Shown: one piece after another, positions 30,548 through 62,819 of the stretch
Layout: each line of letters opens with the position of its first letter
Position numbering within the stretch: the stretch's first letter is position 1
Assembly: GCA_003222395.1 (NCBI GenBank)
Contig: QHWB01000034.1
Location: forward strand, 147,645 to 211,644
Source: Acidobacteriota bacterium
GTDB lineage: Bacteria; Acidobacteriota; Vicinamibacteria; Vicinamibacterales; CAVVIG01
DNA: 64,000 nt
Direction: 5' to 3'
Notes under the pieces: model-generated
Databases searched by the model: none
What the model saw: only the letters and a program-made list of their open reading frames with translations
What the model was told of the DNA's origin: nothing
Made by a program: the position numbers and the translations under genes

Positions 30548-30571
30548 CGGAACTCCTCTCCGTCGACCGCG

Positions 30572-30601
30572 CATGTAACAGGAGAAATGCAAGGCTGTCA
30601 A
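30572..30601 (-). promoter_or_regulatory. Promoter-like motif P3 (minus strand) related to P1/P2
   Basis: The minus strand reads TTGACAGCCTTGCATTTCTCCTGTTACATG. The first 9 nt are identical to P2 and most of the spacer is similar. An SD 'GGAGAGGAG' precedes ATG 30547. Confidence 0.35.
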
Positions 30602-30639
30602 CGGCAATCGGCGCGCGCCTGCGCTCGTGTTTCACGTGT

Positions 30640-37851: not shown

Positions 37852-40611
37852 ATGAACCGGTTGTGTGCAGTCCTAGTCCTGCTGCTGGTCGTCGCGGTGG
37901 CCGCGCCGGCGGCCGCGCAGCGGACAACGGGCGAGATCTTCGGTAAAGTCGTCGACGAGAGCGGAAACATTCTGCCGGGCGTCACCGTCACGCTGCGTGG
38001 CGCGGGCGTCGCCGGAGCGCCAACCGCGGTCACCTCCGAGACCGGGACGTACCGGTTTCCCGTCCTGCCGCCAGGCACCTATAGCCTCGAGTACACGCTT
38101 CCCGGATTTGCGACACTGAGACGCGAAGCGATTCCAGTCGACGTCGGCGCGACCGTCGAGCTCGACGCGTCGATGAAGATCGGCGCCATCGAGGAGGCGG
38201 TGACGGTGACGGGCGAATCGCCCGTCGTCAACCTGTCGTCGTCGCAGGTGAGCACGGCCTACAACCACGAATGGGTGATGAACGCGCCCGTGCGGCGTTT
38301 CTCCTATTTCGATCTGATCAACTCCGCTCCCGGCGTGAGCGCGACCTCCAACGTCGGCCAGAGCACGGCGGCGCAGTCGTTGGGTAACAGCACCAACGAG
38401 AACTCCTATCAGATCGACGGCACCGACATCAGTTCGACGCCGTGGCCGAATACCGACGCGGTCGAGACGGTGGAAGTGCTGCAGCTGGGCGCATCGGCCG
38501 AGTACGGCAACGTGCAGGGCGCCGTCTTCAACATCGTCACGCGAATGGGCGGCAACGTCTTTCACGGCGACGCGAATTTCTACTTTCAGAATGACGCGCT
38601 CACCGGCCGGAACACCACGGACGCGGTCGACAAAGGGTTCCCGTATCACCGGGACAAGTGGCGAGACGCCACGATCCAGGCCACGGGTCCGTTCATACTC
38701 GACAAGTTCTGGTTCTTCGGCTCGTTGGAATACCAGCGGGACTGGGATTCACAACCTGGTACGGATCCGAAGTCGCCAGTGAAGAACGACTCGCGGCGTG
38801 TGTTCTGGAAGTTCAACTACAACATCACGCCGAACCATCGGCTGATGCATGGCTACCACAACGACTACTACTTCATTCCGGACATCACGTCCGAGTTCAC
38901 TGCGCCGAGCACCATTTCACTCAGCCATGGCGATAATCCGACGCCCAACCTTGTGTACACCGGTGTGCTGTCGGACAAAACGTTCATCGAGACGCGGTAC
39001 TCCGGTTTCTGGCTGCACAGCTCCAACGATCCGAACGAGTCCGGAGTCTCGCGCGTGCAGCCGCGATTGGAGGATCAGGACACCGGCTTCATCACGGGCG
39101 GCATCGGCCAATGGACCGAGAACCGGAGCTGGCGGTACGGCCTACAGACGAAGGTGTCGCATCTCACGGGGAACGTTCTCGGCGGTACGCACGAATGGAA
39201 GTCCGGCATTCAGTACGTCGGCCATGGCGCCGACACCGTCACCGGCAATAACGATCTCTATCTCACGTACAACGTCACGCACCGCCCGACCACGGGTACC
39301 ACGCAGTTGCCGTATCACGCGGGATCGATGGCTCGAGCGCTCGGCCTGTACGTCGACGACACGTACCGCGTGGGCAACGCCGTCATCAACCTCGGCGTAC
39401 GGTACGACTACAGCAAGGGACTGTTTCAGGCGCTTCCGTTCCTCGATGCGCAAGGGAATCCGACAGGGCTGATGTCGCCGGCCAACGATGATGTCTATCA
39501 CTGGAACACGGTCTCGCCGCGCGCCGGCATCAACTACAGAGTCAACAGCTCGGGAAGAACGCTGCTGAAGGCGCATTTCGGGCGGTATTACAAGCTGCTC
39601 GAAGCCTCGGAATTCCGGCCGGCGGTTCCGTCGGTCACGACGCTGAACACCTTCACGCTGGACTCTGCCGGCAACCGCACTAACATCGTGCCGACTGCCG
39701 CCGCGAACCTGCGCATCGATCCCAACTTCAAGTCGCCGTACAGCAACCAATTCATCGCGCAGCTCGAGCAGGAGTTGGTGGCCAATCTTGGTTTGCAGGT
39801 GAATTACGTTCACAAGTACGGACAGGACTACGGCGCCTGGCAGGACATCACCGGACAGTACGTGCAGGTGCCGTACGTTGACAATCTCGGAACCGGCGCG
39901 ACGGGCCAGACCGTCATGGTCTACAAGCTCACATCCAATGCAGCCGACCGGGTGTTCCTGCAAACGAATCCCGCCGGGATGTACATGCGGTACAACGGCG
40001 TCACGTTCATGGCGACCAAACGGATGTCGAACAACTGGCAGGGCGTCGTCTCGCTGGTGCTCTCGAAAGCGGAAGGGCGGCTCGCCTCCAGTGCAAGGTT
40101 CAGTCCGGTGACGTCGCAGAGCAGTCTGGCGACCTCTCCGAGCGGTTCAGCACAGTTCGGTCGCGAGACAGCTGGCCCCAACGACTTCGTCAACACGGAA
40201 GGGCGGCTCGTAGGCGATCGGCCCGTTGTGGCCAAAGCACAACTCGTGTACCGGTTCCCCTGGGGCATTCTCGCGTCCGGGAACTTACAGCACCAGACCG
40301 GCCGCTTCTACTCGCGCCAGGTGCGCGTCAGTGGACTCGGCTTCCCGGCCGCCGTTCAGATCAACATGGAGTCGAACACCGGCACGCGCCGCGTGGCCGC
40401 CGTCAATCTGTTCGATGCGCGCGTGCAGAAGGAATTCGCGCTGAACGGAAGCCCGATCAGGTTCGACGTCTTCATCGACGCGCTCAACCTGACCAACAGC
40501 GATCAGTACGAGTCGGTTGGATCGTCGCTCGGCACCTCGTCGGCGTTCGGCGTCCCGACGCGATACATCTCGCCGCGCCGAATGCAGCTCGGCGCGAAGA
40601 TTCGATGGTAG
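37852..40611 (+). CDS. TonB-dependent-receptor-like outer-membrane protein (carboxypeptidase-regulatory-like N-domain), qhp-linked copy 1
   Basis: Signal 'MNRLCAVLVLLLVVAVAAPAAAQ'; 'GVTVTLRGAGVAG…ETGTYRFPVLPPGTYSLEYTLPGF'; C-terminal 'RRMQLGAKIRW'. Confidence 0.8.
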   Translation: MNRLCAVLVLLLVVAVAAPAAAQRTTGEIFGKVVDESGNILPGVTVTLRGAGVAGAPTAVTSETGTYRFPVLPPGTYSLEYTLPGFATLRREAIPVDVGATVELDASMKIGAIEEAVTVTGESPVVNLSSSQVSTAYNHEWVMNAPVRRFSYFDLINSAPGVSATSNVGQSTAAQSLGNSTNENSYQIDGTDISSTPWPNTDAVETVEVLQLGASAEYGNVQGAVFNIVTRMGGNVFHGDANFYFQNDALTGRNTTDAVDKGFPYHRDKWRDATIQATGPFILDKFWFFGSLEYQRDWDSQPGTDPKSPVKNDSRRVFWKFNYNITPNHRLMHGYHNDYYFIPDITSEFTAPSTISLSHGDNPTPNLVYTGVLSDKTFIETRYSGFWLHSSNDPNESGVSRVQPRLEDQDTGFITGGIGQWTENRSWRYGLQTKVSHLTGNVLGGTHEWKSGIQYVGHGADTVTGNNDLYLTYNVTHRPTTGTTQLPYHAGSMARALGLYVDDTYRVGNAVINLGVRYDYSKGLFQALPFLDAQGNPTGLMSPANDDVYHWNTVSPRAGINYRVNSSGRTLLKAHFGRYYKLLEASEFRPAVPSVTTLNTFTLDSAGNRTNIVPTAAANLRIDPNFKSPYSNQFIAQLEQELVANLGLQVNYVHKYGQDYGAWQDITGQYVQVPYVDNLGTGATGQTVMVYKLTSNAADRVFLQTNPAGMYMRYNGVTFMATKRMSNNWQGVVSLVLSKAEGRLASSARFSPVTSQSSLATSPSGSAQFGRETAGPNDFVNTEGRLVGDRPVVAKAQLVYRFPWGILASGNLQHQTGRFYSRQVRVSGLGFPAAVQINMESNTGTRRVAAVNLFDARVQKEFALNGSPIRFDVFIDALNLTNSDQYESVGSSLGTSSAFGVPTRYISPRRMQLGAKIRW

Positions 40612-40696: not shown

Positions 40697-41104
40697 ATGA
40701 CATATCTCAGAACCGCGGCCATCGCGCTCCTCGTCTTCGCCATCAGCGCGTCGGCGTTTGCCGGCGATTTGCAGGACAGCATCGCGAAAGCGGCGCAGCA
40801 ACAACAGCAGGAGGAACGGGCGCCGACGAGACACACGAACAAACCGCTGGTCTACACGGGTGCGGCACTGTTCGTCGGCGGCATGGCCGTCGGGCTGTTC
40901 TCGTTCATCAACAATAAGAACGGCTCCTTCTCCGAGTTCGGAGAAGCCAACGCGGTCAACAAGCCGCTCGGCGCCGCGGGTCTCGCCACGGCGTTCGTCG
41001 GCGGGACGATGATGTTCCTTGGCAGCCACAGAGCTAACACAAAAGCGCCGTCGGTCACGATTGGCGCGCGTCAGCTCAAGGTGGTCAAGCAATTGTCGTG
41101 GTGA
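40697..41104 (+). CDS. Small secreted/membrane protein of unknown function (135 aa; signal peptide, two Gly-rich hydrophobic segments, C-terminal …KQLSW), qhp-linked copy 1
   Basis: ATG 40697 with the SD 'GAGGGAG'. 'LLVFAISASAFA|GDLQDSIAKAA', Gly-zipper-like 'GAALFVGGMAVGLFSF' and 'GAAGLATAFVGGTMMFLG'. The stop is 4 nt before qhpA. A clear paralogue lies at 53933..54337. Confidence 0.7.
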   Translation: MTYLRTAAIALLVFAISASAFAGDLQDSIAKAAQQQQQEERAPTRHTNKPLVYTGAALFVGGMAVGLFSFINNKNGSFSEFGEANAVNKPLGAAGLATAFVGGTMMFLGSHRANTKAPSVTIGARQLKVVKQLSW

Positions 41105-41108
41105 CGCG

Positions 41109-42899
41109 ATGTTGAAACCAATTGGTTGTGTTCTGGGTGTGGTTCTCGCGGCGACGTTGGTGCCACGCGCCGTGGCCGATTCCTCTCAGGCACCGGCGAA
41201 TCGGGCCGCACAGACGGCGCAGCCGGGCGGCGAATCGAGAGGCGACGAAGGCATTCCGGTCACCAGCGATCTGGTCAAGCGGAAATGCGGCACCTGCCAT
41301 CTGCCCGACGAAAAAGGCCGGCTGTCGCGCATCTCGTACCGCCGAACGACTCCCGAGGGATGGGAGCAGACGATCAAGCGGATGATCACGCTCAACAACG
41401 TCCCTCTCGAGCCGGCCGAAGCGCGCGACATCGTGCGGTACCTCGCCGATCATCATGGGCTCGCGCCCGACGAGGCGAAGGCGGCGGCATTCGAGGTCGA
41501 GCGCCGGCTCATCGAATACTCATATCCCGGTGACAAAGACACCGAGCGGACGTGCAGCACGTGTCACTCGATGGGTCGTGTTGTCGCCCAGCGGCGCACC
41601 AAGGAAGAGTGGACGCTGCTGTTGGAAATGCACCGCGCGATTTATCCAGGCACGGATACCGTGTTCCGGCGCGGTCTCGGCCAGCGCCGCGGAGGCGCGC
41701 CGCAGTCGGGCGCGCCGCCGGAAGACACCAGACACCCGATGGACCGGGCGATCGAACATCTCTCGTCAACGTTCCCGCTCACGACTGCGGAATGGGCGGC
41801 GTGGTCGGCGACCATGCGGCCACCGCAGCTGCAGGGGCGATGGGCGCTCGCCGGTTATCAACCGGGCCGCGGTCCGGTATTCGGACAAGTGATCGTCAGC
41901 AATCAGGGCGATCCGAGCAGCGGTGATTTCACGACCGAAACCACTTTTACGTACGCGCGCGGGGGACAGACCGTGACGCGCCGCGGCCGCGGTCTCGTGT
42001 ACACGGGGTTTCAGTGGCGCGGCCGATCGAGCGGCGACGGAACGCCGTTCACGATCCCGGGCGTCAGCACCGACTGGCGGGAAGTGTTGTTCGTCGATCG
42101 CGAGTGGCGGAGCGCCGAAGGCCGTTGGTTCACGGGCGGATACAACGAACTGGGGCTGGATGTGCGGCTGCGACGCGTCGGCGCCGATCCGATCGTCCTC
42201 GGCGTCGCCGAGCCGATGATCAAGGCCGGCGTCTCGCAACAGGAGCTGCACCTGTACGGCGCGAACCTTCCGGCAAGTCCATCGCAAGCGGACGTGAACT
42301 TCGGCCCCGGCGTCACGGTCGATCGCATTGTCAGCTCGACGCCGACGCAGATGGTCGTGTCGGTGTCGGTCGCGCCGGGCGCGGCGGTCGGACGGCGCGC
42401 CGTCATTCTTGGCGGCGCCACCGGCGAGGCGGACGTGGCCGTCTACAACACGATCGACTACATCAAAGTGCGTCCGCAGGCCGGCATCGCGCGGCTGGGC
42501 GGCGCGGCGCAGTTCCCGAAGGGATTTCAACAGTTCGAAGCGATCGCGTACGCGAAAGGACCCGACGGAAAGGCCGACACGAAAGACGACGTCGAGCTCG
42601 GACTGATCGACGCGTACTGGACGCTCGAGGAGTACACGGCGACGTTCAACGACGACGACAAGGAGTTCGTCGGCGACATCAACGCCGAGACGGGACTGTT
42701 CACGCCGAACGTCGACGGTCCGAACCCGAAGCGGAGACACAACGCCAACAACTACGGCGACGTCTGGGTCGTGGCCTCGTATCCCCGCAGTCTCGCGATG
42801 AACCGCGGATCGAACGTGCGATCGGTCAAGGGGCGCGCGCACCTGCTGGTTACCGTTCCGGCGTACATCCTCTTCGAACAACCGGAGGTCGGCAGATGA
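41109..42899 (+). CDS. qhpA: Quinohemoprotein amine dehydrogenase alpha subunit (diheme cytochrome c plus beta-barrel domains), copy 1
   Basis: Signal peptide; two C-x-x-C-H sites ('KCGTCH', 'TCSTCH'); 'LSRISYRRTTPEGWEQTIKRM' and 'IVRYLADHHGLAP' match my recollection of the QHNDH alpha heme-binding domain. Confidence 0.85.
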   Translation: MLKPIGCVLGVVLAATLVPRAVADSSQAPANRAAQTAQPGGESRGDEGIPVTSDLVKRKCGTCHLPDEKGRLSRISYRRTTPEGWEQTIKRMITLNNVPLEPAEARDIVRYLADHHGLAPDEAKAAAFEVERRLIEYSYPGDKDTERTCSTCHSMGRVVAQRRTKEEWTLLLEMHRAIYPGTDTVFRRGLGQRRGGAPQSGAPPEDTRHPMDRAIEHLSSTFPLTTAEWAAWSATMRPPQLQGRWALAGYQPGRGPVFGQVIVSNQGDPSSGDFTTETTFTYARGGQTVTRRGRGLVYTGFQWRGRSSGDGTPFTIPGVSTDWREVLFVDREWRSAEGRWFTGGYNELGLDVRLRRVGADPIVLGVAEPMIKAGVSQQELHLYGANLPASPSQADVNFGPGVTVDRIVSSTPTQMVVSVSVAPGAAVGRRAVILGGATGEADVAVYNTIDYIKVRPQAGIARLGGAAQFPKGFQQFEAIAYAKGPDGKADTKDDVELGLIDAYWTLEEYTATFNDDDKEFVGDINAETGLFTPNVDGPNPKRRHNANNYGDVWVVASYPRSLAMNRGSNVRSVKGRAHLLVTVPAYILFEQPEVGR

Positions 42900-44374
42900 T
42901 CACGCTGGCGCCTCGCGAGTTCCACCTGTTCCAGGCGGCGGGCCGCGATTTCCTGTACCTCGTGCCGAGCGCGGCGATCTTCGCGCTCGACGACATCACG
43001 TCGGCCGTGCTCGCAGCCGTAACTGAAACGAAACGTACCGAGGCCGCCGTCGTCGACGCGCTCGCCGAACGGTTCGACGGCGCCACGGTTCACGAAGCCG
43101 TTGCCGACCTCCTGGCCGTCCGCGCGATTGGGTACGAGCACGAGCCCGAGTCGCGCACGCCGCGAGTGCTCCCGTTGATGCCCGCATCGTTGAGCACCGG
43201 GCGGAGCGGCGTCATCCCGCTCACGACGATGGTGATGAACGTCACGAACCAGTGCAACCTGGCGTGCACGTACTGCTATGAGTACGGCGAGGACAAGATC
43301 GTCGACACCGAGCACGGCAAGAAACCGAAGTTCATGTCCGAGCAGACGGCGCGCGAAAGCGTCGAGTTCCTGCTCAGGGAAAGCGGCACCGTTGCGCATC
43401 TGACGTTCTTCGGCGGCGAGACGCTGCTCAATTTTCCGGTGCTGCAATCGACCGTGGCTTACGGCCGGCGGCGCGCCGCGGAGCTCGGGAAATCGATCGA
43501 CTTCAGCCTCACGACCAACGCCACGCTGCTGAGACCGGAGATCATCGAGTTCCTCGTGGAGAACGACGTCGGCGTCACGATCTCGATCGATGGTCCGCGC
43601 GAGATGCAGGACAGGTTCCGCGTCTTCCACAACGGCGCCGGCAGCTACGACGTCGTCGCGCCGAAGATCAAGGAGCTGTTGAAACGGCATCGGAGCAAGC
43701 CGATCGCCGCGCGCGTCACGTTGACGTCGGGCACGCTCGACATCACCCGCATCTATCGCCATCTGACCGAGGAGATTGGCTTCGGCGAGGTCGGATTCGC
43801 GCCGGTCACGACGTCTCCCGGTCAGGGGTACGCGATCGGCGAGCGTGGGTTCGATACCATGCTCGCGCAGTTCCGCGCGCTCGCGCAGGAGTGGCTCGAG
43901 TGCAGTCTCGCGAACCGGCATCACGGCTTCTCGAACGTCACCGAATCGCTCGAAGAGATTCACAAGGGCGTCAGCAAGGCGTATCCGTGCGGCGCTGGTC
44001 TGGGTCTCCTGGGAGTGTCGACCGACGGCGACGTCGCGTTGTGTCATCGGTTCGCGGGATCGGACGCGCACAAGCTGGGCACGGTGCGCGACGGCGTGGA
44101 TCGCGATGCGCAGGTCGCCTTCCTCGAGCGGAATCACATCGCCGACAAAACCGACTGCAGCAGGTGCTGGGCGCGTCCGTTGTGCTCCGGCGGCTGCTAT
44201 CACGAAGCGCACGTGCGCTACGGCACGACGACGCATCCGAATCTTCACTACTGCGAGTGGATTCGCGGATGGACCGACACGTGCCTGCGGCTCTACGGTG
44301 AATTGTCCGAGCGAAACCCGGCGTTCCTGGCCCGGTTCGATCGAGAGGAAGCGAAGGCGGAGGCGGTGGTGTGA
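42896..44374 (+). CDS. qhpD: Radical SAM/SPASM peptide maturase for the gamma subunit (QhpD), copy 1
   Basis: ATGA overlap with qhpA. 'NVTNQCNLACTYCYEYG' is C-x3-C-x2-C. The C-terminal SPASM cysteine cluster is 'CGAGLGLLGVSTDGDVALCHRF…CSRCWARPLCSGGCYHEA'. Confidence 0.85.
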   Translation: MITLAPREFHLFQAAGRDFLYLVPSAAIFALDDITSAVLAAVTETKRTEAAVVDALAERFDGATVHEAVADLLAVRAIGYEHEPESRTPRVLPLMPASLSTGRSGVIPLTTMVMNVTNQCNLACTYCYEYGEDKIVDTEHGKKPKFMSEQTARESVEFLLRESGTVAHLTFFGGETLLNFPVLQSTVAYGRRRAAELGKSIDFSLTTNATLLRPEIIEFLVENDVGVTISIDGPREMQDRFRVFHNGAGSYDVVAPKIKELLKRHRSKPIAARVTLTSGTLDITRIYRHLTEEIGFGEVGFAPVTTSPGQGYAIGERGFDTMLAQFRALAQEWLECSLANRHHGFSNVTESLEEIHKGVSKAYPCGAGLGLLGVSTDGDVALCHRFAGSDAHKLGTVRDGVDRDAQVAFLERNHIADKTDCSRCWARPLCSGGCYHEAHVRYGTTTHPNLHYCEWIRGWTDTCLRLYGELSERNPAFLARFDREEAKAEAVV

Positions 44375-44413: not shown

Positions 44414-44746
44414 ATGCGTCATCTCAAACCGATCAATCAAAAGGCTGGCCGCGTCGTCGACTTCGTGGCGAATCAGAAGCACGACGTCGTCGCGCTGCAG
44501 CAGCCGCCGTTCCGGCCGCATCTTCCGCTGGGATGCACCTCCCTCTTCTCGCCCGGCTGGGAAGCGGATCAGGCGGGCGGGACGGCCGGACTCTGCACGC
44601 CCGTCGAGCGCGACATCTTCGACTGTCACATCAGCTGCTTCTGGCCGGCGCAGGTACCCGACATGCTGAATCACTCGCCCGACTGGACGGGCAAGTGCGC
44701 CGCCGCGCAGAAGGACTGGCGGAAGATCGATCTCGTGTTCCCGTGA
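44414..44746 (+). CDS. qhpC: Quinohemoprotein amine dehydrogenase gamma subunit precursor (CTQ / thioether cross-linked peptide), copy 1
   Basis: 110 aa. The core 'GCTSLFSPGWEADQAGGTAGLCTPVERDIFDCHISCFWPAQVPD' has Cys, Glu, Cys, Asp, Cys, Cys, Trp, Asp at relative positions 0, +9, +20, +26, +30, +34, +36, +42. As I recall, this is the Cys7/Glu16/Cys27/Asp33/Cys37/Cys41/Trp43/Asp49 pattern of the characterised gamma subunits. Confidence 0.85.
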   Translation: MRHLKPINQKAGRVVDFVANQKHDVVALQQPPFRPHLPLGCTSLFSPGWEADQAGGTAGLCTPVERDIFDCHISCFWPAQVPDMLNHSPDWTGKCAAAQKDWRKIDLVFP

Positions 44747-44787: not shown

Positions 44788-45942
44788 ATGTTGAAGCGCG
44801 TTTTGTCGGGGGCAGTACTTCTCGCGGCTCTCTTCACGCTCGTTGCCGCAGCGCCCGCGAAGCTCACGGGCGGCAACGGCACCTTGTACATCGGCGGATG
44901 GCCGAACAGGATCTTCGTCATCGACGAGGCGACCGAAAAGGTGACAGGCACCATCGAAGTCACCACGGCCGGGCCGCCGAAGGGCGGTCCTCCGCGATCG
45001 ATGGTGCTGTCGAAGGATCGCAAGCGGTTCTATCTGACGAACTCGCTCGAGCAGGTGGAGATCCTCGACGCCGCCGCGCGCAGGAGCATCGATCACTTCT
45101 CGATGTCCGAAGGGCCGAACAAGCGGACGTACATCCGCGGAATGGTTCCCGATCCGCTCGATCGCTTCCTGATCATGGTTCTGAAGGTCGTCGAGAAGAA
45201 GATCGACCGGTACGAGGTCGGGGCTCCGAAGATGGTCGTCTACGATCTGAAGGAGCACAGGATCGCGCGCACCATTCCCTGGCCGAACAACGAGGAGCGC
45301 GAGAACGTCAACGTGATGTTCTCGCCCGACGGCAAGCTGCTGTACTTCTTCGCCGACGACGTGCTGATCTACGACACGACCGATTTCAAGCAGGTCGACA
45401 CCTGGGAGCTCTCGCGGCCGATCGAGGAGGGGTTCGGCCGCTTCGACTTCGGCCCGCGCGACACGACCTACGAAGAGCCTGGCTACTACAGCGGCATCTT
45501 CACGACCAGGGATCCGATCCAGAACCGCGACATCATGGGCGTCGCGCGCGTGAACCTGACAGCCAAGAGCTTCGACTTCTGGCCGATTGGGCCTGCTGTG
45601 CAGCTTCCCGTCGGAGCTCGGCCGGTGAGCTTTTCGCTCGCGCCGGATCGCAAGCGCGCCTACGGACTGCTGCAGGAGATCGGCCGCTACGAGTTCTGGA
45701 CGTTCGATCTCGACCGCCACAACGTGGCCAAGACGGAATTCGACGGCCGTCCGCGGATGGCATTGCGGACCAGCACCAACGGCAAAATCCTGTACATCTA
45801 TCAAGCCGGCAATACGATCGACTTCTACGACGCCGCGAACTACAAGTACCTTCGCACCCTGACGCTCGATGCCGACGAGACGACCGATCTCATCGTCGTC
45901 CCTGCTGAAACCGGCCGCACGACGTCTTCCTCGCAGCACTGA
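44788..45942 (+). CDS. qhpB: Quinohemoprotein amine dehydrogenase beta subunit (beta-propeller), copy 1
   Basis: ATG 44788 with the SD 'GGGAGA'; signal peptide 'MLKRVLSGAVLLAALFTLVAAAPA'. Repeated strand motifs typical of YVTN-like propellers. Position after qhpC matches the canonical qhpADCB order. Confidence 0.75.
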   Translation: MLKRVLSGAVLLAALFTLVAAAPAKLTGGNGTLYIGGWPNRIFVIDEATEKVTGTIEVTTAGPPKGGPPRSMVLSKDRKRFYLTNSLEQVEILDAAARRSIDHFSMSEGPNKRTYIRGMVPDPLDRFLIMVLKVVEKKIDRYEVGAPKMVVYDLKEHRIARTIPWPNNEERENVNVMFSPDGKLLYFFADDVLIYDTTDFKQVDTWELSRPIEEGFGRFDFGPRDTTYEEPGYYSGIFTTRDPIQNRDIMGVARVNLTAKSFDFWPIGPAVQLPVGARPVSFSLAPDRKRAYGLLQEIGRYEFWTFDLDRHNVAKTEFDGRPRMALRTSTNGKILYIYQAGNTIDFYDAANYKYLRTLTLDADETTDLIVVPAETGRTTSSSQH

Positions 45943-46219: not shown

Positions 46220-46309
46220 GCGCAAAGCTTTCAAGTTTCATCTAAGGTGACAGTGCTCTCTTCTGGGGTCCAATCTCACGGTCCTGAACGATTTCAAGGG
46301 AGGAGCAGC

Positions 46310-49222
46310 ATGCGGCGAGGCGCGATCGTCTTCGGACTCTTGGTGCTGGTCCTGGTGTCGGCAGCAGCCCCGGCACGCGCGCAGCGAACCACGGGAGAGA
46401 TTGTCGGCGTCGTGACCGACGAATCGAACCTCGTTCTGCCGGGCGTCACGGTGACGCTTCGAGGCCCCGGCGTCGCCGGCACGCCGACGGTCGTCACCAG
46501 CGAAACCGGCGCATACCGTTTTCCGGCGTTGCCACCCGGAGAGTACACGATCGAGTACACGCTTCAGGGCTTCGCGACGCTGAGGCGCGAGAACATCCCC
46601 GTCGGCGTAGGCGCGGTCATCGAGCTGAACGTTCCACTGAAGGTCAGCACGCTGAGCGAGACGGTGACCGTGACCGGCGAATCGCCGGTGGTGAACCTGG
46701 CGTCGACGACGGTGAGCACGAACTACAACAAGGAATGGGTCGCGGCGGCGCCGATCAGACACTTCTCGTTCTTCGATCTCGTCAACTCCGCGCCTGGCGT
46801 GAGCGCCACGTCGACGCTCGGCTCGAACTCTTCAGCGACCACGCTCGGGAGCACGACGAACGACAATGTGTACGCGATCGACGGCACCGATCTGTCCGCA
46901 CCGATCGGCGGCGGCGCCTGGCCGTGGCCGAACGCCGACGCGATTCAGGAAGTCGAGGTTCTGCAGTTGGGCGCTTCAGCCGAGTACGGCAACGTCATGG
47001 GCGCCGTCTTCAACGTCGTGACCCGCCAGGGCGGCAACCAGTTTCACGGCGACGCGACGTACTACGGGCAAACCCAAAAGCTGACGAGCCGCAACACGAC
47101 GGTTGCGCAGGAATGCCTCGGCGTATCGGACTGTCCGTCAAGTGGCCTGCCGTATCACCGCGATCAGTGGCGAGATACCACGGCCCAACTGACGGGTCCG
47201 TTCGTCCGAGACAAGTTCTGGTTCTTCGGATCGTTCGAGTATCAGAACGACTTCGATTCGCAGCCCGGTACCGATCCGTCCGCGCCGGCGAAGTCGACGT
47301 CGCGGCGCGTGTTCTACAAGTTCAACTACAACATCACGCCGAATCACCGGCTGATGCACGGCTATCACAACGACTACTGGGCCTTCCCGGGAGTTCCGAC
47401 AGCCTCCATCGCGCCGAGCGCCGTTGCGCTGTTCCACGGCGACAACCCCACGCCGAACCTGGTGTACACCGGCGTTTTGTCGAGCAAGACGTTCGTGGAA
47501 GCGCGTCTGGCCGGCTATTACGGAAAGGATTCCGGCGATCCGTTGCTTCCCGGTGAGCCGCGCGTCAAACCTCACATCATCAACCAGGATACGGGCCTGA
47601 TTAGCGGCGGCATCTCGTCCTGGGACGATGAGAAGGTATGGCGCACCGGCGTCAGCGGGAAGATCTCGCATCTTGCCGACAGGTTTTTGGGTGGCAGCCA
47701 CGATCTGAAGCTCGGCGTGCAGTACAGCACCGGCGGCCAGGACAGCGTCACCGGACCCAACGACTACCTCTACATCGTCGGCGGACGGCAGTCGTATGGC
47801 TACACACGTTTGCCGTGGCACGCGGGCGGACTCATTCGGATCCTCGGAACGTACGTCGACGACACCTACCGCCTCGGAAATACGTTCACGTTCAACCTGG
47901 GATTGCGGTACGACCATAGCCAGGCGCTCTATCCGTCGTTCCCGGTCCTCGATGCGTCAGGGAATGCCACCGGACAGGTCTCTCCCGGTAATGACGACGT
48001 GTATCACTGGAACGTGGTATCGCCGCGAATCGGTGCGACCTGGAAGGTGAACCAGGCAGGCAAGACCGTCGTCAAGGGCTACTACGGACGCTTGTATCGC
48101 GGAATCCTGCTCGCCGATTTCACCGACGCCAATCCGTCGGTCACCCCCAGGTTCATCTTCGACATCCTGCCTTCGGGTGCGCGCACGAACTTCGACGTCG
48201 TCAGCAGCAACACGAATCTGACGATCGATCGCGGTTTCAAGGATCCGTACTCGCACGAAGCGATCGTTCAGATAGAACAGGAGATGATGCCGAACCTCGG
48301 GCTGCAGGTGAACTACGTCTACAAACGCGGATACGACTACGGCGGCTGGCAGGACACCGGCGGACGTTATTCGCAGGTACCGTATGTGGACAGTGCGGGC
48401 ATCGACGCGAGTAACAGAACACTACAGCTGTTCAGCCTACTGACGCCATTCAGTCAGAGCACGTTTCAGATGACGAACGTGCCGGGGCTGTTCAGCAGAT
48501 ACAACGGAATGACGATCACAGGCACGAAGCGGATGTCGCACAATTGGCAGGGAACGCTTTCTCTCGTGGTGTCCAAATCCGAAGGACGCGAGCCCTCGAG
48601 CACGCGAAGCCCGGCGACTGCTCAATACGGCACGTCCGGAGGCTTCGGGCGGATCGGATGCGGCAGTCCATGCGCCGGCGGTCAGAACGACTTCATCAAC
48701 ACGGATGGCCTGCTGCTCGGCGATCGTCCGGTCGTGGCGAAGGCGCAGGTCATCTACAACTTCCCCTGGGGGATTCTGGTCTCGGGCAACCTGCAGCATC
48801 AGACGGGCCGCCCGTGGGCGCGCCAGATCCGCGTGGCCGGATTGGGATTTCCGAGCCGGCCCACGATCTATATGGAGCCGCTCGATGGCAGCCGGCGGCT
48901 GCCGGCGTTGGATCTGGTCGACGCGCGGGTGCAGAAGTCGATCCCGCTCGGGCGCCCTGGCGTGTTTCTCGATCTCTTCATCGATGCGCTCAATCTGACG
49001 AACAGCGACTCAACCGAGAACGTCCTGAGCCGGCGCGGCGATCAGCCCGATACGTTCGGCGTGTGGTCCGGGGCGGACACGTTGGTCCGCCCCTACCTGT
49101 CTATTTCGGCCAATCGATCACGGGCGGCACTGAATCCCGCATTCAATTCGAGAGTCTTCCGAAAGTACGGCGCCGCTTCTGATGCGCGGTGCTCGCGCTG
49201 GAGCGTGAGCCCGAGATTGTAG
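46310..49222 (+). CDS. TonB-dependent-receptor-like outer-membrane protein, qhp-linked copy 2 (aberrant C-terminus)
   Basis: Collinear with 37852..40611; most of the first ~150 mature residues are identical by eye. Where the paralogue ends '…AKIRW*', this gene reads '…SANRS' and runs on for 33 more codons into the convergent gene. Confidence 0.7.
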   Translation: MRRGAIVFGLLVLVLVSAAAPARAQRTTGEIVGVVTDESNLVLPGVTVTLRGPGVAGTPTVVTSETGAYRFPALPPGEYTIEYTLQGFATLRRENIPVGVGAVIELNVPLKVSTLSETVTVTGESPVVNLASTTVSTNYNKEWVAAAPIRHFSFFDLVNSAPGVSATSTLGSNSSATTLGSTTNDNVYAIDGTDLSAPIGGGAWPWPNADAIQEVEVLQLGASAEYGNVMGAVFNVVTRQGGNQFHGDATYYGQTQKLTSRNTTVAQECLGVSDCPSSGLPYHRDQWRDTTAQLTGPFVRDKFWFFGSFEYQNDFDSQPGTDPSAPAKSTSRRVFYKFNYNITPNHRLMHGYHNDYWAFPGVPTASIAPSAVALFHGDNPTPNLVYTGVLSSKTFVEARLAGYYGKDSGDPLLPGEPRVKPHIINQDTGLISGGISSWDDEKVWRTGVSGKISHLADRFLGGSHDLKLGVQYSTGGQDSVTGPNDYLYIVGGRQSYGYTRLPWHAGGLIRILGTYVDDTYRLGNTFTFNLGLRYDHSQALYPSFPVLDASGNATGQVSPGNDDVYHWNVVSPRIGATWKVNQAGKTVVKGYYGRLYRGILLADFTDANPSVTPRFIFDILPSGARTNFDVVSSNTNLTIDRGFKDPYSHEAIVQIEQEMMPNLGLQVNYVYKRGYDYGGWQDTGGRYSQVPYVDSAGIDASNRTLQLFSLLTPFSQSTFQMTNVPGLFSRYNGMTITGTKRMSHNWQGTLSLVVSKSEGREPSSTRSPATAQYGTSGGFGRIGCGSPCAGGQNDFINTDGLLLGDRPVVAKAQVIYNFPWGILVSGNLQHQTGRPWARQIRVAGLGFPSRPTIYMEPLDGSRRLPALDLVDARVQKSIPLGRPGVFLDLFIDALNLTNSDSTENVLSRRGDQPDTFGVWSGADTLVRPYLSISANRSRAALNPAFNSRVFRKYGAASDARCSRWSVSPRL

Positions 49223-51117
49223 GTGTAGCGCGGTTCCTTCGCGTCGCGCTGCACCGCCTCCCGAAACAGGCGCTCCGCTTCGACGAGATCACCGCCCGCA
49301 CCGACGATCATCCCGAGCGAATTCCACTGCGACGGCTCCGCCGGATCGCGCGCGATGGCGTCCCGAAAGGAGCTCGCGGCCTGCTGGAGATCGCCGCTGT
49401 CGCGATGAAGCTCGCCGAGGCGGCGGTAGATCCGCGCGTCGGTGGGCACGGCGCGGGCGCCGCGGCGCAGCGCATCGATCGCGCCGTGGCGATCCTTGAT
49501 CGCGACGCGGCAGTCGGCGAGCGCCAGATACGTGGCCGCAAATCCCGGCAGCCGCGGAATCGCGCGGTCGAACTGCGCGGCTGCCTCGCGCCACCGCGCC
49601 AGCGCCACGAGCGCCTGGCCGTAGTAGTAGTGCGATTCGAAGCTGTCGATGCCTCTCGCCGCGAGCGTCTTGAAGCGGGTCGCTGCGGCGTCGTACTGCT
49701 TGTCGCGCAGGTTCAGCAATCCCGCATGGAGCAGGGCATTCAGTTCCCTGTAGTCCGCGATCTTGTCCTTCGGATCCGCGTCTGTCGACGCGCCGCCCGC
49801 GGCGCCGCCGCTCACGTACCCGAGGGCGCCGAGCTTTTCGATCAATTCGATTGGCACGTCGCCCGCCTGCGCCTGACCCCGCGTCGCGGCCGCCTCGCTC
49901 GCGAGACGACGATCGATCGCGGCGCGGAACGCGCGGGCTCGCGCCGGCTCGGCGTCGATCACGTTCTTCAGCTCCGACGGATCGCGCGCCAGGTCGTACA
50001 GCTCCGATCGCGGCGCGAGGATGAATTTCCATCGCCCCTCGCGGACGCTGCGGAGATCGCTCCAGCCGTAATGGATCCGCGGCGTCAGCGATTCGGCGAA
50101 CGCCGGCACTTCGTCGCGCGGCGCCGGTTCGCCGCGCAGGAGCGACGCGAGGCTGCGCCCCGGAAGGGATCCGGTCGACCGCGGAGGCGCCACGCCGGCG
50201 AGATCCAGAATCGTCGGGAACAAGTCGACGCTCTGCACGACGAGCGGGAGGCGCGTTCCCGGGACGATGCCGGGTCCGCGCATCAGCAGCGGCACGCGCA
50301 GCGTGGCCTGATACAAGAAGAACCCGTGCACCAGCTCGCCGTGCTCGCCGAGCGCTTCGCCGTGATCGGAGGTGAGCACGAGCAGCGTGTCGTCGCGGAT
50401 GCCGAGGCGCGCCAGCGTCCGGTCGAGGCGTCCGATCAGCTCGTCGGTCCAGGCGACTTCGCCGTCGTACGGGCGCTCGGCGTATCGCGAGGCATAGGGT
50501 TCGGGCGGTTCGTACGGCGCGTGAGGATCGTAGAGATGCACCCACGCAAACGTCCGCTGGCGCCGGTGGCGTTCGAGCCACGCCGACGCGTCGGCGACCG
50601 CGACGTCGCCGCGTTTTTCCAGGATGTCGAGGAAGCGCGCCTCGTCCGGCGCGTCGGTGCCGAGATCGAAACGATCGGAGAACTCGTCGAACCCGCGCGC
50701 CAGACCGGACTGCGACGACAGCACGATCGACGACACGAATCCGGCGGTATCGAACCCGGCGGCCTTGAACGCCTCCGCCATCGTCGGCACATCCGGGGCC
50801 AGCGCGCGCGAGATGTTGTCGCGGATGCCGTGCTGCGCCGGATAGAGGCCGGTGAAGATCGAGACGTGCGACGGCCGCGTGATCGGCGCATGCACCATCG
50901 CGTCGAGCGCCAGCGCTCCTTCGCGCGCGACCCGATCGAAGTTCGGCGTCGCGACATCGCGGCTGCCGTAGCAGCCGAGCCGATCGGCGCGAAGCGTGTC
51001 GATGGTGACGATGAGAATGTGACGAGGCGGGCCTGCGACGGCGTGCGGAGTGTTGTGATCGCAGCCGAGGACACAGAGAGGGCAGAGCACACAAAGAAAG
51101 GCAAACCACAGAGACAC
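49093..51117 (-). CDS. Sulfatase-fold (alkaline-phosphatase superfamily) enzyme fused to C-terminal TPR repeats; lipoprotein-like signal
   Basis: 'HILIVTIDTLRADRLGCYG' is the metal-binding start of the fold. The nucleophile region 'APITRPSHVSIFTGLYP' has T-x-P-x-H in place of C/S-x-P-x-R. The C-terminal third carries TPR-like repeats. N-terminus '…LCVLGC'. Confidence 0.75.
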   Translation of the reverse strand: MSLWFAFLCVLCPLCVLGCDHNTPHAVAGPPRHILIVTIDTLRADRLGCYGSRDVATPNFDRVAREGALALDAMVHAPITRPSHVSIFTGLYPAQHGIRDNISRALAPDVPTMAEAFKAAGFDTAGFVSSIVLSSQSGLARGFDEFSDRFDLGTDAPDEARFLDILEKRGDVAVADASAWLERHRRQRTFAWVHLYDPHAPYEPPEPYASRYAERPYDGEVAWTDELIGRLDRTLARLGIRDDTLLVLTSDHGEALGEHGELVHGFFLYQATLRVPLLMRGPGIVPGTRLPLVVQSVDLFPTILDLAGVAPPRSTGSLPGRSLASLLRGEPAPRDEVPAFAESLTPRIHYGWSDLRSVREGRWKFILAPRSELYDLARDPSELKNVIDAEPARARAFRAAIDRRLASEAAATRGQAQAGDVPIELIEKLGALGYVSGGAAGGASTDADPKDKIADYRELNALLHAGLLNLRDKQYDAAATRFKTLAARGIDSFESHYYYGQALVALARWREAAAQFDRAIPRLPGFAATYLALADCRVAIKDRHGAIDALRRGARAVPTDARIYRRLGELHRDSGDLQQAASSFRDAIARDPAEPSQWNSLGMIVGAGGDLVEAERLFREAVQRDAKEPRYTYNLGLTLQREHRASEAAPYFRKTLELNAGFSAARDRLAEIDR

Positions 51118-51348: not shown

Positions 51349-53700
51349 TTACCTCTGCGCGCTCGTGTTCCTGCGCGCACTCGCGAGCTTCGCGCGCGCT
51401 TCCTCTCGTTCTCCGGCGGCCGCTTCACGTGCGGCGTCGTTCGCGCGTCCGAGACGCGAATAGACGTCGGCCAGCACATAGTGACCGAGTGGAACGACTT
51501 CCGCGTCGGGATGGCGAGCCATTCCCGTTGTCGCCGCGGCTTCGGCGCCGATCAGGTCGCCGGCATCGAGCCGCGCCTTCGCGAGATACAGGTAGCCGCT
51601 GCCGAAGTCCGGATTCGCCCGCACCGCTTCGTCGAAGTGGCGGACCGCATCGGCGGCGCGGCCCGATGCCATGAGGATCTTGCCGAGATTGAAATGGGCG
51701 CGATACGCGTCGGGACTGCGCGCGATCTCGGCCTCGTACTCGCGCGCGGCGGCGTCGGTCTGGCCTCGCGCGTCGCGGACGAGCCCGAGATCGTAATGCG
51801 CCATCGGTTGATCCGCTTTGTCTTTCAGCGCGTCCAAAAGACTCCGTTCGGCCTCGTCGTACCGCTTCATCTCGATGTAGCACTCGCCGAGCTTCGTCAG
51901 AAACGCCGGACGTTCGACGTTGTCGGCGACCGCGCGCTTCAACGCCGCCTCGGCGCGCTCGAACTCGCCGCGCCGCATCCAGATGTCGGTGAGCTGGTAG
52001 CGTGCTTTCGAGTCGCGCGGGTTCAGCGCCAGCACCCGCTCGAAGCCGGCTTCGGCCGCGTCGTTCTTTCCGTCGGTCTTGTAGGCGAGCGCCAGGCTGA
52101 ACGCCGCGGTCTGGTTGTCGGGATCGAGCGCGAGCGCCTTCTGGTACGCCTCGAGCGACTCCTTCGGCCGCTTCGCCTTCGCATTCATGTTGCCGAGCAT
52201 GAGGTACGCCTCGACGATCTCCGGGTCGGCCGCCAGCGCCCGGCGGACTTTTGAGATCCCTTCGTCGAGGCGTCCTTCCACCGAATCGAGCGCCGCCTGC
52301 TTCATCAGGTTGTACAGGGCGATCTTGTCCTTCGGATCGCCGCGGCGCCGCGTCTCCAGCGCGCGCGGGCTGATGCTCGAGCCGACGTACCCCAGCGCGC
52401 GAAGCCGCTGCTCGACGTCGGGGTCGACCGCCCGCGGCGCGGCGGGCGCAGACGCGGATGCCGTGCGCGCGACCAGCTCCTGCAGCGCCTGCGCCTGAAT
52501 GTCGGTGCGACCTGGATTCACTTCGGCGACGTTGCGCGTCTCACCGGGATCGGTTTCGGTGTCGTAGAGCTCGCGCGTTGGTGCGGCGATGAAGTGGTAG
52601 CGCCCGTCGCGAATGGCGGTCAGCTCGCTCCAGCCGTAGTGATGGCGCGGGTACCACGTCTCGGACAGCGCGACGAGGTTCAGCCGTTCACCGCGAACGA
52701 GAGGCAGCAGGCTGCTTCCCTGAACCGCTTTCGGCCCGTCGATGCCGAGCACCTCGAGCACCGTCGGCATCACGTCGACGATGCGCACCTGGTCGGTGAC
52801 GATGCGCGAGGGCAGCGTGGGACCGGCCACGATGAGCGGGATTCTGACGGTTGCGTCGTACACAAAGAACCCGTGCTGCTCTTCGCCGTGCTCGCCGAGC
52901 GACTCGCCGTGATCGCCGAGGACGACGACGACCGTGCGATCGAGGCGGCCGTCGCCGGCGAGATGATCGAGCAGACGGCGCAGCTGCAGATCGGCTGTCG
53001 CAATCTCCGCGTCGTACGCGCCGATCATCGTCGGCGGAAAGCGCTCGCGGATCGATGCGGGCGGATCGTACGGTGCATGCGGCTCGTAGAGATGCACCCA
53101 CGCGAAGAACGGGCGCGTCCGATCCTGGTCGAGCCATTCGATGGCTTTCGCCACGACCTCGCTGCCGGGCCGCTGCACCGCGTCGAGGCCGACGTCCATG
53201 CGGTACTTGCCGAGATCGAAGTCGTCGAAGAAGCGCTCGAAGCCCTGGGCGATGCCCCATCGACGATCGAGGACGAACGCGGCGACGAACCCGCCGGTGC
53301 GGTACCCTCGGGCGCGCACGACTTCTGCGAGCGTCTCCTGCTCCTCGCCGAGATAGAAGCCGCCGTTGTCGCGCACGCGATGCGCGCCGGGGAAGGTTCC
53401 GGTCATGAGCGACGCGTGCGCCGGGAGTGTCAGCGGCGCCGACGTGGCCGCCTGCGCGAACCGGACGCCGCGGGCCGCGAGGGCGTCGAGCGCCGGCGTC
53501 TGCGCCGCGGCATACCCATAGCTGCCGACATGATCCGCCCGCAGCGTGTCGATGGTGACGATGAGGATGTTGAGTCGGGCATCGCGGCGCGCGCGCGCGA
53601 TCCACGAGCCGAACGCGATTGAGGCGAGCGCCAGACCGCACGCGAGCGCGACGAGCGCGGTCGCAGACGCCCTGCGCGTAGCCCCCGTGTCCTTCGGCAC
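51349..53700 (-). CDS. Sulfatase-fold enzyme fused to C-terminal TPR repeats, paralogue of 49093..51117
   Basis: 'LNILIVTIDTLRADHVGSYG'; nucleophile region 'APLTLPAHASLMTGTFP' (T-x-P-x-H); a long C-terminal TPR array. I prefer GTG 53700, which is followed by a membrane anchor/signal 'ATALVALACGLALASIAFG'. The ORF-track start at 53955 would overlap the divergent small gene. Confidence 0.7.
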   Translation of the reverse strand: MPKDTGATRRASATALVALACGLALASIAFGSWIARARRDARLNILIVTIDTLRADHVGSYGYAAAQTPALDALAARGVRFAQAATSAPLTLPAHASLMTGTFPGAHRVRDNGGFYLGEEQETLAEVVRARGYRTGGFVAAFVLDRRWGIAQGFERFFDDFDLGKYRMDVGLDAVQRPGSEVVAKAIEWLDQDRTRPFFAWVHLYEPHAPYDPPASIRERFPPTMIGAYDAEIATADLQLRRLLDHLAGDGRLDRTVVVVLGDHGESLGEHGEEQHGFFVYDATVRIPLIVAGPTLPSRIVTDQVRIVDVMPTVLEVLGIDGPKAVQGSSLLPLVRGERLNLVALSETWYPRHHYGWSELTAIRDGRYHFIAAPTRELYDTETDPGETRNVAEVNPGRTDIQAQALQELVARTASASAPAAPRAVDPDVEQRLRALGYVGSSISPRALETRRRGDPKDKIALYNLMKQAALDSVEGRLDEGISKVRRALAADPEIVEAYLMLGNMNAKAKRPKESLEAYQKALALDPDNQTAAFSLALAYKTDGKNDAAEAGFERVLALNPRDSKARYQLTDIWMRRGEFERAEAALKRAVADNVERPAFLTKLGECYIEMKRYDEAERSLLDALKDKADQPMAHYDLGLVRDARGQTDAAAREYEAEIARSPDAYRAHFNLGKILMASGRAADAVRHFDEAVRANPDFGSGYLYLAKARLDAGDLIGAEAAATTGMARHPDAEVVPLGHYVLADVYSRLGRANDAAREAAAGEREEARAKLASARRNTSAQR

Positions 53701-53879
53701 GGCGACATTGTAGCGAATGCGAAAATCACGCACTTTCCTGATTGCCCGACCTTCGCACGCCCGGTAGGATCTGGGGGCAACCGAACGACCCAATCGCCGA
53801 GTAGCGCGGAGCCGCTCGGTGGATCTACGCGGCACTGAGAGAGCCAATCGCCGATAAACGCCGAGCGGCCGAAGGCCGC

Positions 53880-53922
53880 GAGGTACAGGTCGCGGGGGTG
53901 GGGCCCCGCGACAAATAAGAAA
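53880..53922. repeat. Half copy (E) of the ~90-nt repeat: second hairpin plus A-rich tail only
   Basis: 'GTCGCGGGGgtggggCCCCGCGACaaataagaaaa', a 9-bp stem at 53889-53912. It lies immediately upstream of the SD 'AAGGAG' and ATG 53933. Confidence 0.5.
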
Positions 53923-53932
53923 AGGAGACACC

Positions 53933-54337
53933 ATGCGACGGCTGCGGATCCTCATCGCGTCGAGTGCGATTCTGGCTATCGGAACGTCGAGCTTCGCGGG
54001 CGATTTTCAGGACAGCGTGGCGAAAGCGGCGCGCGACGCCGCCGGGCAGCAGACCGAGCAGCGATCCGGGAACCGCAACCCGTACCTCTGGCCGGGCGCG
54101 GCGCTCTTCGTCGCCGGCATGTCCCTGGCGGTGTACGGCTTCCTGCACACGAGCGGCGGCGAATTCGTGTCGGGCGAAGTGTCGAAGGAATCGAAGACAG
54201 GACTCGGCGGCGCGGGGCTCGCCGTCGCCGCAGCCGGCGGAGCACTGTTGTACTGCGGAACGCTGCGCGCGCGTCACGCGCCGTCGATTACAGTCGGTCG
54301 CGGACGCCTCACCGTCGCGAAGCAGGTTTCGTGGTAA
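53933..54337 (+). CDS. Small secreted/membrane protein of unknown function, paralogue of 40697..41104 (qhp-linked copy 2)
   Basis: 134 aa. 'SSFA|GDFQDSVAKAA', Gly-rich segments 'GAALFVAGMSLAVYGF' and 'GGAGLAVAAAGGALLYCG', C-terminal 'LTVAKQVSW'. Collinear with copy 1. Confidence 0.7.
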   Translation: MRRLRILIASSAILAIGTSSFAGDFQDSVAKAARDAAGQQTEQRSGNRNPYLWPGAALFVAGMSLAVYGFLHTSGGEFVSGEVSKESKTGLGGAGLAVAAAGGALLYCGTLRARHAPSITVGRGRLTVAKQVSW

Positions 54338-62814: not shown

Positions 62815-62819
62815 TCCTG

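Follow-up and report, generated by a model that had tools for sequence, protein, structure and literature searches.

A 64-kb stretch of acidobacterial DNA (66% GC; hereafter the window, meaning the whole stretch that was analyzed) contains two qhp loci, and the small gene qhpC1 in the first of them raises the question of whether it really encodes a gamma-subunit precursor of quinohemoprotein amine dehydrogenase (QHNDH), and of what is to be made of an additional cysteine and of a longer segment ahead of its first cysteine. Judged by its sequence, qhpC1 is a true QhpC precursor, that is, the small, cross-linked, quinone-bearing gamma subunit of QHNDH, and its source looks like an acidobacterium of the Vicinamibacterales type. 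The overall explanation, in which considerable confidence can be placed, is that qhpC1 encodes a functional gamma precursor that would mature by way of QhpD1, a QhpG-like flavoprotein, QhpE and QhpF, would be cut after Ala27, and carries a fifth cysteine typical of non-proteobacterial QhpC. The family itself is already known: an NCBI equivalog model names it, and relatives are labeled "quinohemoprotein amine dehydrogenase subunit gamma" in public records.

The open reading frame (ORF) of qhpC1 begins with an ATG that has AGGAG 7 nt on its 5' side and ends in a TGA stop at 44744-44746; its translation of 110 residues is MRHLKPINQKAGRVVDFVANQKHDVVALQQPPFRPHLPLGCTSLFSPGWEADQAGGTAGLCTPVERDIFDCHISCFWPAQVPDMLNHSPDWTGKCAAAQKDWRKIDLVFP. 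It scores 110.1 bits on Pfam PF08992 (cutoff 25) and 128.7 bits on the NCBIfam model NF037958 QH_gamma (cutoff 50), the latter placing ORF residues 1-110 on profile positions 1-104. When compared with PDB sequences by phmmer, residues 39-110 match residues 5-76 of the gamma chains of both Paracoccus denitrificans (1jju_C, E 4.8e-21) and Pseudomonas putida (1jmx_G, E 3.2e-21) without a single gap. These family matches are far beyond chance.

Two of the cross-links of the model enzymes reportedly join Cys7 to Glu16 and Cys27 to Asp33. QHNDH's gamma subunit is described as having a Cys37/Trp43 pair that forms cysteine tryptophylquinone (CTQ), a Cys41-Asp49 bond, three Cys-to-Asp/Glu thioethers and a 28-residue leader (PMC7876137). 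In the ungapped alignment to the solved chains, ORF residues C41, E50, C61 and D67 of qhpC1 correspond to mature Cys7, Glu16, Cys27 and Asp33, and C71, C75, W77 and D83 correspond to Cys37, Cys41, Trp43 and Asp49 (mature numbering is used below unless stated otherwise). All thioether donors and acceptors (Cys7/Glu16, Cys27/Asp33 and Cys41/Asp49) are present, as is the CTQ-forming pair in the form of C71 and W77. The original prediction had claimed this complete pattern of three thioethers plus CTQ and had proposed an alignment with characterized QhpC as the check; its numbering superimposes exactly on 1jju_C and 1jmx_G, with all eight key residues in place.

The fifth cysteine lies at a position, 61, that is occupied by Ala in both solved gamma chains. 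Cys61 is found in all 119 in-frame sequences of the 120 closest 90%-identity clusters (≥69% identical; the Acidobacteria/Gemmatimonadota type) and in 80 of 80 GTDB species genomes with the best matches, which span Vicinamibacterales, Blastocatellia, Bryobacterales, Terriglobia (including Edaphobacter modestus DSM 18101), Longimicrobiaceae and Gemmatimonadales. It is likewise present in 17 of 17 Bacilli clusters (Aneurinibacillus, Bacillus badius, Sporosarcina, Planococcaceae), in 15 of 15 listed members of a Lindowbacteria/Poribacteria cluster, and in the rarer lineages P0163, P0167, P0226, P0157 and P0248. None of the 120 Proteobacteria-type clusters around the model enzymes has it, the position being taken by Ala (80), Lys (23), Ser (7), Val (3) and others. 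The number of cysteines follows the same division, with exactly four in the mature chain of 119 of 120 Proteobacteria-type sequences and exactly five in 118 of 119 of the Acidobacteria type. Among representatives of 50%-identity clusters, many of which are frameshifted or fragmentary and which form a sample biased by the query, 40 have an intact C-terminal part and 32 of these carry Cys61. On these alignments, Cys61 appears to mark essentially all non-proteobacterial QhpC and to be absent from the proteobacterial branch that holds both characterized enzymes; everywhere except in that branch, it is conserved as strictly as the cross-link residues in the sequences compared. The predicted conservation of an extra fifth cysteine thus held across several phyla of the non-proteobacterial QhpC sampled, and a lack of the residue among homologues, which had been named as the outcome that would weaken it, was seen in none of the closest clusters, the 80 genomes or the Bacilli. 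In the literature searched, a fifth Cys in QhpC is nowhere mentioned.

Two other lineages deserve a description of their own. The divergent P0226/P0420 lineage of QhpC has seven cysteines, with extras after Glu16 and at position 72 (Asp in the Acidobacteria type), and its Cys27-Asp33 region is altered. In the QhpC of Bacilli (P0164 and P0425-P0440), Cys61 is followed by Pro62, and the leader ends in EVEG ahead of LQLPIGC; since these Gram-positive organisms encode QhpC, the "periplasmic" QHNDH also exists in monoderm bacteria.

The original prediction had described the fifth cysteine as having no obvious partner, which is right as far as cysteines are concerned. Mature QhpB1 and QhpB2 contain zero Cys, and QhpA1 has just the four cysteines of its heme CxxCH motifs; in related loci, QhpB has 0 Cys in 36 of 72 cases and QhpA no Cys besides the four of the hemes in 59 of 67, and no conserved Cys partner for Cys61 was found in the alpha or beta subunits across 80 loci. 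Because these subunits offer no conserved Cys, an inter-subunit disulfide was rejected as the conserved role of Cys61. The description does not hold with respect to acidic residues, given that an invariant Asp67 stands at +6, the spacing of Cys27-Asp33, and is the sole acidic residue downstream of Cys61 that is kept in all Cys61 lineages. Two other aspartates were discarded as general partners: Asp72, which is conserved only in the Acidobacteria type and is replaced by Lys in Bacilli and by Asn/Thr elsewhere, and Asp56, whose position is variable. No gamma-subunit position tracks Cys61 consistently across lineages (Arg32, for example, fails in the P0157 lineage).

Cys61 is strictly invariant, whereas the site varies freely (even to Lys) in sequences that lack the cysteine, and this contrast suggests that its role lies in chemistry and not in packing. 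Such a role could be that of donor in a fourth thioether, made by QhpD with the beta-carbon of Asp67 as acceptor, a link that would close a C-x5-D ring like that of Cys27-Asp33 and leave the non-proteobacterial gamma subunit with four rings plus CTQ; this is a tentative proposal, one of two leading readings that are about equally likely and each less than even. It accords with the fact that the other cysteines of the gamma peptide are all thioether-linked in the model enzymes, and with the invariance of Cys61 in several phyla while its neighbors at 58-60, 63 and 65-66 vary and while position 61 is unconstrained (A/K/S/V/P/E) in sequences that have no cysteine there. Asp67 is invariant at the spacing of a known ring, and the P0157/P0248 lineage, in which one residue is inserted between Cys61 and Asp67, has a Glu at +6. 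The complex contains no disulfide partner for Cys61, which otherwise, in many species, would be left as the only free thiol of this periplasmic enzyme, and QhpD is a close relative of the permissive Cys-Asp/Glu cross-linkers of the PapB/SCIFF type. Nevertheless, the 120 Proteobacteria-type sequences, which have no Cys61, keep Asp67 with the same invariance, so that there is no covariation signal. Moreover, the stretch past position 61 is probably helical, and residues i and i+6 are not neighbors within a helix: an AlphaFold2 model of QhpC1 (104-sequence alignment; mean predicted local distance difference test, pLDDT, 50.8; predicted template modeling score, pTM, 0.21), from which only rough helix positions were taken, places helices at ORF residues 9-20 and at mature 44-53 and 64-70, the last of these covering Asp67, and two short helices are described for the QHNDH gamma subunit (PMC7876137). 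Pro62 would be the helix N1 residue in Bacilli and Proteobacteria. About as likely, with at most a slight advantage, is the other leading reading, that Cys61 stays unlinked as a free thiol where the last helix begins, lies buried or at a subunit interface, and serves packing, redox tuning or a metal or ligand contact. The same weak model sets Cys61 three residues ahead of the last helix, the Pro that follows it in Bacilli is what a helix start would show, and segment 57-76 hardly varies within the Acidobacteria-type clade, which is what an interface would be expected to show. Packing alone, however, should at times allow Ala or Ser, neither of which replaces the cysteine in any of the more than 230 sequences, drawn as they are from at least four phyla, and the Lys found at this site in 23 of the 120 Proteobacteria-type sequences speaks against tight packing. 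Lone free thiols are also uncommon in periplasmic and extracellular proteins. Most of the remaining probability goes to some other covalent link or a ligand role of Cys61. A wider proposal, to be taken with equal reserve as the fourth thioether, is that the gamma subunits of Acidobacteriota, Gemmatimonadota, Bacilli and Lindowbacteria/Poribacteria might share a fourth covalent link through Cys61, likeliest a Cys61-Asp67 thioether, in which case the "three thioethers plus CTQ" of the models would be a reduced, derived state.

The other departure from the model enzymes concerns the N-terminal segment. The precursor has 40 residues before the first Cys, compared with 34 in the model enzymes, whose solved chains start M-N-A-L-V-G-C7 and M-S-A-V-A-G-C7; the model cleavage site was deduced from these chain starts and the 28-residue leader (PMC7876137). 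In Proteobacteria-type precursors, the mature Met is residue 29 in 115 of 120 sequences, preceded by a leader with [D/E]-V-[V/T]-A at its end. In qhpC1, the corresponding motif D-V-V-A ends at Ala27 and is followed by L-Q, with 13 residues (LQQPPFRPHLPLG) before the first Cys; no other feature at the leader end is as well conserved, either in the Acidobacteria type, where it reads D-V-V-A then L-Q, or in Bacilli, which have E-V-E-G then L-Q-L-P-I-G-C, with a spacing of six residues. MAFFT aligned DVVALQ to EVTAME, so that the length gap falls after the motif. Among 122 Acidobacteria-type sequences, the commonest distance from Met1 to the end of the motif is 27 residues (64 sequences), and the first Cys comes 13-18 residues past the motif in all but two; in the Proteobacteria type, this second distance is six in each of the 104 sequences in which the motif was found. 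If QhpE recognizes the conserved [D/E]-V-x-A motif, the leader would be 27 residues long, with the cut after Ala27 between DVVA and LQ; this position is favored with moderate confidence and would give a leader of normal length (27 vs. 28). The mature subunit would then have 83 residues, including a 7-residue N-terminal extension, and the extra stretch is clade-specific, Q/P-rich and variable in length.

Both loci have the gene order A-D-C-B (Table 1). Of the 80 related loci, most of those with enough sequence to judge have this order as well. A homologue of the QhpG-like flavoprotein stands upstream of qhpA, mostly immediately, in about 30 of the 80, the typical order being G-A-D-C-B-F-E. Within the window, qhpE and qhpF occur only after locus 2 and the QhpG-like gene only upstream of locus 1, each as a single copy. 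Because these single genes are split between the two loci, a common set of one G, one E and one F appears to serve loci 1 and 2. The same split is seen in the nearest genome, a metagenome-assembled genome from Vicinamibacterales, with L001 of the locus-1 type (QhpC 87% identical, no E/F) and L007 of the locus-2 type. The second paralogue, qhpC2, starts with a GTG that overlaps the qhpD2 stop and has GAAGGAGA upstream. The strings that the earlier reading quoted as common to the two paralogues, WT(G/A)KCAAAQKDWRKIDL(V/I)FP at the C-terminus and M(R/I)HLKPIN(Q/R)KA...DVVALQ in the leader, are found in both exactly as quoted. Purifying selection acts on both gamma genes, the ratio of nonsynonymous to synonymous substitution (dN/dS) being 0.16 for qhpC1 against its L001 orthologue, 0.14 for qhpC1 against qhpC2 and 0.03 for qhpC2 against L007. 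The two beta subunits, at 57 bits (QhpB1) and 70 bits (QhpB2) on TIGR03907, are much more divergent from the proteobacterial models than are alpha, gamma or QhpD. For the gene at 36104-37723, a halogenase was considered, CmlS being the best PDB hit, and was rejected in favor of a QhpG-like protein for three reasons: QhpG heads its NCBIfam hits, many related loci have a homologue upstream of qhpA, and the structure published for QhpG resembles CmlS as well.

Table 1. Coordinates of qhp genes and of features within qhpC1 in the window (SAM, S-adenosylmethionine; ABC, ATP-binding cassette)
Feature	Coordinates	Strand	Basis or remark
QhpG-like flavoprotein, candidate Trp43 dihydroxylase	36104-37723	+	NF049967 QhpG 235.9 bits (cutoff 240); 7ctq_A E 3e-19
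qhpA1, diheme alpha subunit	41109-42899	+	listed ORF from 41019, signal-peptide Met at about 41109; TIGR03908 467 bits (cutoff 274); four Pfam QHNDH alpha domains
qhpD1, radical SAM/SPASM thioether-forming maturase	42896-44374	+	TIGR03906 555.7 bits (cutoff 453)
qhpC1, gamma-subunit precursor, 110 aa	44414-44746	+	PF08992; NF037958; ungapped PDB alignment
Putative leader M1-A27, HLKPINxKA motif near N-terminus, DVVA at end	44414-44494	+	motif kept across clades; aligns to the site between EV(V/T)A and M
L28-G40, between putative QhpE site and first Cys	44495-44533	+	13 residues vs. 6 in model enzymes; extra Q/P-rich part clade-specific
Core with cross-link and CTQ residues, C41-D83	44534-44662	+	ungapped PDB alignment; columns invariant in alignments A1 and A2
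Fifth Cys codon TGC (ORF C95, mature position 61)	44696-44698	+	invariant in non-proteobacterial QhpC sampled; never Cys in 120 Proteobacteria-type clusters
Asp101 codon (mature Asp67), hypothetical thioether acceptor	44714-44716	+	family-wide invariant acidic residue, 6 positions past fifth Cys
qhpB1, divergent beta-propeller subunit	44788-45942	+	best hit TIGR03907, 57.5 bits (cutoff 223); synteny A-D-C-B
qhpA2	56405-58147	+	Pfam/NCBIfam profile matches
qhpD2	58144-59574	+	Pfam/NCBIfam profile matches
qhpC2, second gamma precursor, 109 aa, 76% identical to qhpC1	59571-59900	+	same residue pattern, same fifth Cys
qhpB2	59906-61018	+	TIGR03907 70 bits, below cutoff 223; synteny
qhpF, ABC exporter	61015-62814	+	ABC_membrane and ABC_tran
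qhpE, subtilisin-like leader protease	62784-63479	+	NF049966 174.3 bits (cutoff 165)

These data bear on two further readings of the gene, one of its leader and one of its function. The original prediction spoke of a leader of about 34 residues, longer than the 28 of the model system; the segment before the first Cys is indeed longer, whereas the leader itself probably is not, since the DVVA motif ends at residue 27 and the extra QQPPFR... stretch comes after it, and the "34-aa leader" is probably a misreading. A leader of that length would require QhpE to cut at a fixed distance before the first Cys, between R34 and P35, yielding a 76-residue subunit co-linear with the model enzymes. Although the alignment of the mature domain to the PDB chains begins near residues 35-39, PH-x-P-x-G-C is conserved within the clade, and the NCBIfam precursor profile (104 positions) covers the whole ORF, the sole leader-end motif kept between clades, [D/E]V-x-[A/G] followed by [L/M], ends at residue 27, and the region from this motif to PH-x-P is variable in both length and sequence. 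Pro at P1' is disfavored by subtilases, and the cut would have to fall before Pro35, a poor subtilase site, which leaves the longer leader with perhaps one chance in a few. Far less credible still is the view that qhpC1 is a redundant, decaying duplicate and that the enzyme is made from qhpC2 alone. It would explain why locus 1 has no qhpE or qhpF and why its G-like gene is displaced upstream; against this, all four locus-1 genes are intact with good scores, dN/dS against the orthologue is low, and the locus-1 type forms a separate lineage in other genomes and metagenomes (P0001-P0011, L001) with every key residue kept. The DVVALQ motif of both paralogues is, in addition, compatible with one QhpE for both.

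With qhpC1 taken as a functional precursor cut at the DVVA motif, its maturation can be outlined by homology with the pathway described for the P. denitrificans and P. putida systems (PMC7876137). The N-terminal leader (HLKPINxKA...DVVA) would dock QhpC1 on the radical-SAM enzyme QhpD1, which would then form the Cys7-Glu16, Cys27-Asp33 and Cys41-Asp49 thioethers. The QhpG-like flavoprotein, encoded 6.7 kb upstream, would hydroxylate Trp43, which would subsequently join Cys37 as CTQ. The single QhpE protease of locus 2 would take off the leader, and the single QhpF exporter of the same locus would carry the peptide to the periplasm, where assembly with QhpA1 and QhpB1 could follow.

Several points weigh against this account. 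QhpB1 reaches only 57 bits where the beta-subunit cutoff is 223, the QhpG-like protein falls just under its own cutoff (235.9 vs. 240 bits), and an outer-membrane receptor gene sits between the QhpG-like gene and qhpA1. Both the formation of the thioethers and CTQ in the qhpC1 product and the position of the QhpE cut (residue 27 or 34) are predictions from homology. The cut could depend on the distance from the cross-linked core instead of on the motif, PH-x-P-x-GC being conserved in the clade as well, and the AlphaFold2 model, at its pLDDT, is too poor for any geometry.

Two small paralogous proteins encoded upstream of qhpA1 and qhpA2 (40697-41104 and 53933-54337; 43% identical) have a signal peptide and a glycine-rich hydrophobic stretch; neither Pfam nor NCBIfam gave a hit for them, and the closest loci, L001 and L036, were the only ones in which homologues turned up. 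Around the qhp loci there are at least three, probably four, large genes for proteins with CarboxypepD_reg and outer-membrane beta-barrel domains that resemble TonB-dependent receptors (27779-30607 on the minus strand, 30694-33537, 37852-40611 and 46247-49222), the last three of which were covered by the Pfam scan. These receptors may take up amine substrates. The one between the QhpG-like gene and qhpA1 is kept at that place in L001, with 83% identity. Between the qhp loci lie two adjacent genes for fusions of a sulfatase with tetratricopeptide repeats (49093-51117 and 51349-53955, both on the minus strand). Directly upstream of the QhpG-like gene, 34248-36287 encodes a 679-residue protein with an N-terminal FAD/NAD(P)-binding Rossmann motif and no specific family match.

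QHNDH is the standard example of a protein stabilized by radical-SAM-made Cys-Asp/Glu thioethers around a protein-derived quinone, and, to our knowledge, everything known about it comes from two proteobacterial enzymes. The larger, uncharacterized part of the family, which includes abundant soil Acidobacteriota and cultivable Bacilli, has one more strictly conserved Cys and a longer N-terminal segment. Should Cys61 be cross-linked, both the substrate scope of QhpD and the architecture of the gamma subunit would need revision; should it be free, it would represent a rare case of a periplasmic redox enzyme with a conserved lone thiol. QhpC of the Cys61 type is available in cultivable hosts, among them Edaphobacter modestus DSM 18101, Aneurinibacillus migulanus, Bacillus badius and Sporosarcina soli. 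As it stands, the finding amounts to a correct annotation and a modest question about the chemical state of Cys61.

The closest known systems are those of P. denitrificans (1JJU/1PBY, chain C) and P. putida (1JMX/1JMZ, chain G), whose QhpC belongs to the same curated-HMM family (HMM, hidden Markov model) as qhpC1 and aligns with it over 72 residues without gaps. They share identical positions of Cys7, Glu16, Cys27, Asp33, Cys37, Cys41, Trp43 and Asp49, a leader with xHLKxxNxKA near the N-terminus and [D/E]VxA at its end, and the neighbors qhpA, qhpD and qhpB. Unlike the models, qhpC1 has the invariant Cys61, which is Ala in both, has 13 rather than six residues from the leader-end motif to the first Cys, ends its chain at Pro76 without the short C-terminal tail, and has Phe or Tyr, not Trp, at position 42. 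Its system also differs in a very divergent beta subunit (57 bits, as noted above, for a cutoff of 223) and in two paralogous loci that appear to share one QhpE, one QhpF and one QhpG-like gene. With five cysteines and a spacing of 13, qhpC1 falls outside the canonical Proteobacteria type (four mature Cys, a 28-residue leader and a spacing of six).

Ranthipeptide and SCIFF systems (PapA-PapB and ScfA-ScfB) rely on the same chemistry as QhpD, the linkage of sulfur to the beta- or gamma-carbon of Asp/Glu by radical-SAM/SPASM enzymes, and on leader-dependent processing. The enzymes are related, QhpD1 scoring 278 bits on the PapB model and 247 bits on that of the SCIFF maturase, each below its cutoff. 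In contrast to these peptides, QhpC is not secreted as such and serves as a redox-enzyme subunit with a quinone cofactor; it has ring sizes of x5, x7 and x8, and it additionally undergoes QhpG hydroxylation and CTQ formation. A Trp-derived protein quinone, as in QhpC, is also found in MauA, the small subunit of methylamine dehydrogenase with tryptophan tryptophylquinone (TTQ), and in the CTQ oxidases LodA and GoxA. LodA and GoxA rely on a flavoprotein maturase as well, and the QhpG-like protein gave weak hits to LodB and GoxB. Nevertheless, MauA, LodA and GoxA have no sequence relationship to QhpC and carry no radical-SAM thioethers, MauA being stabilized by disulfides instead.

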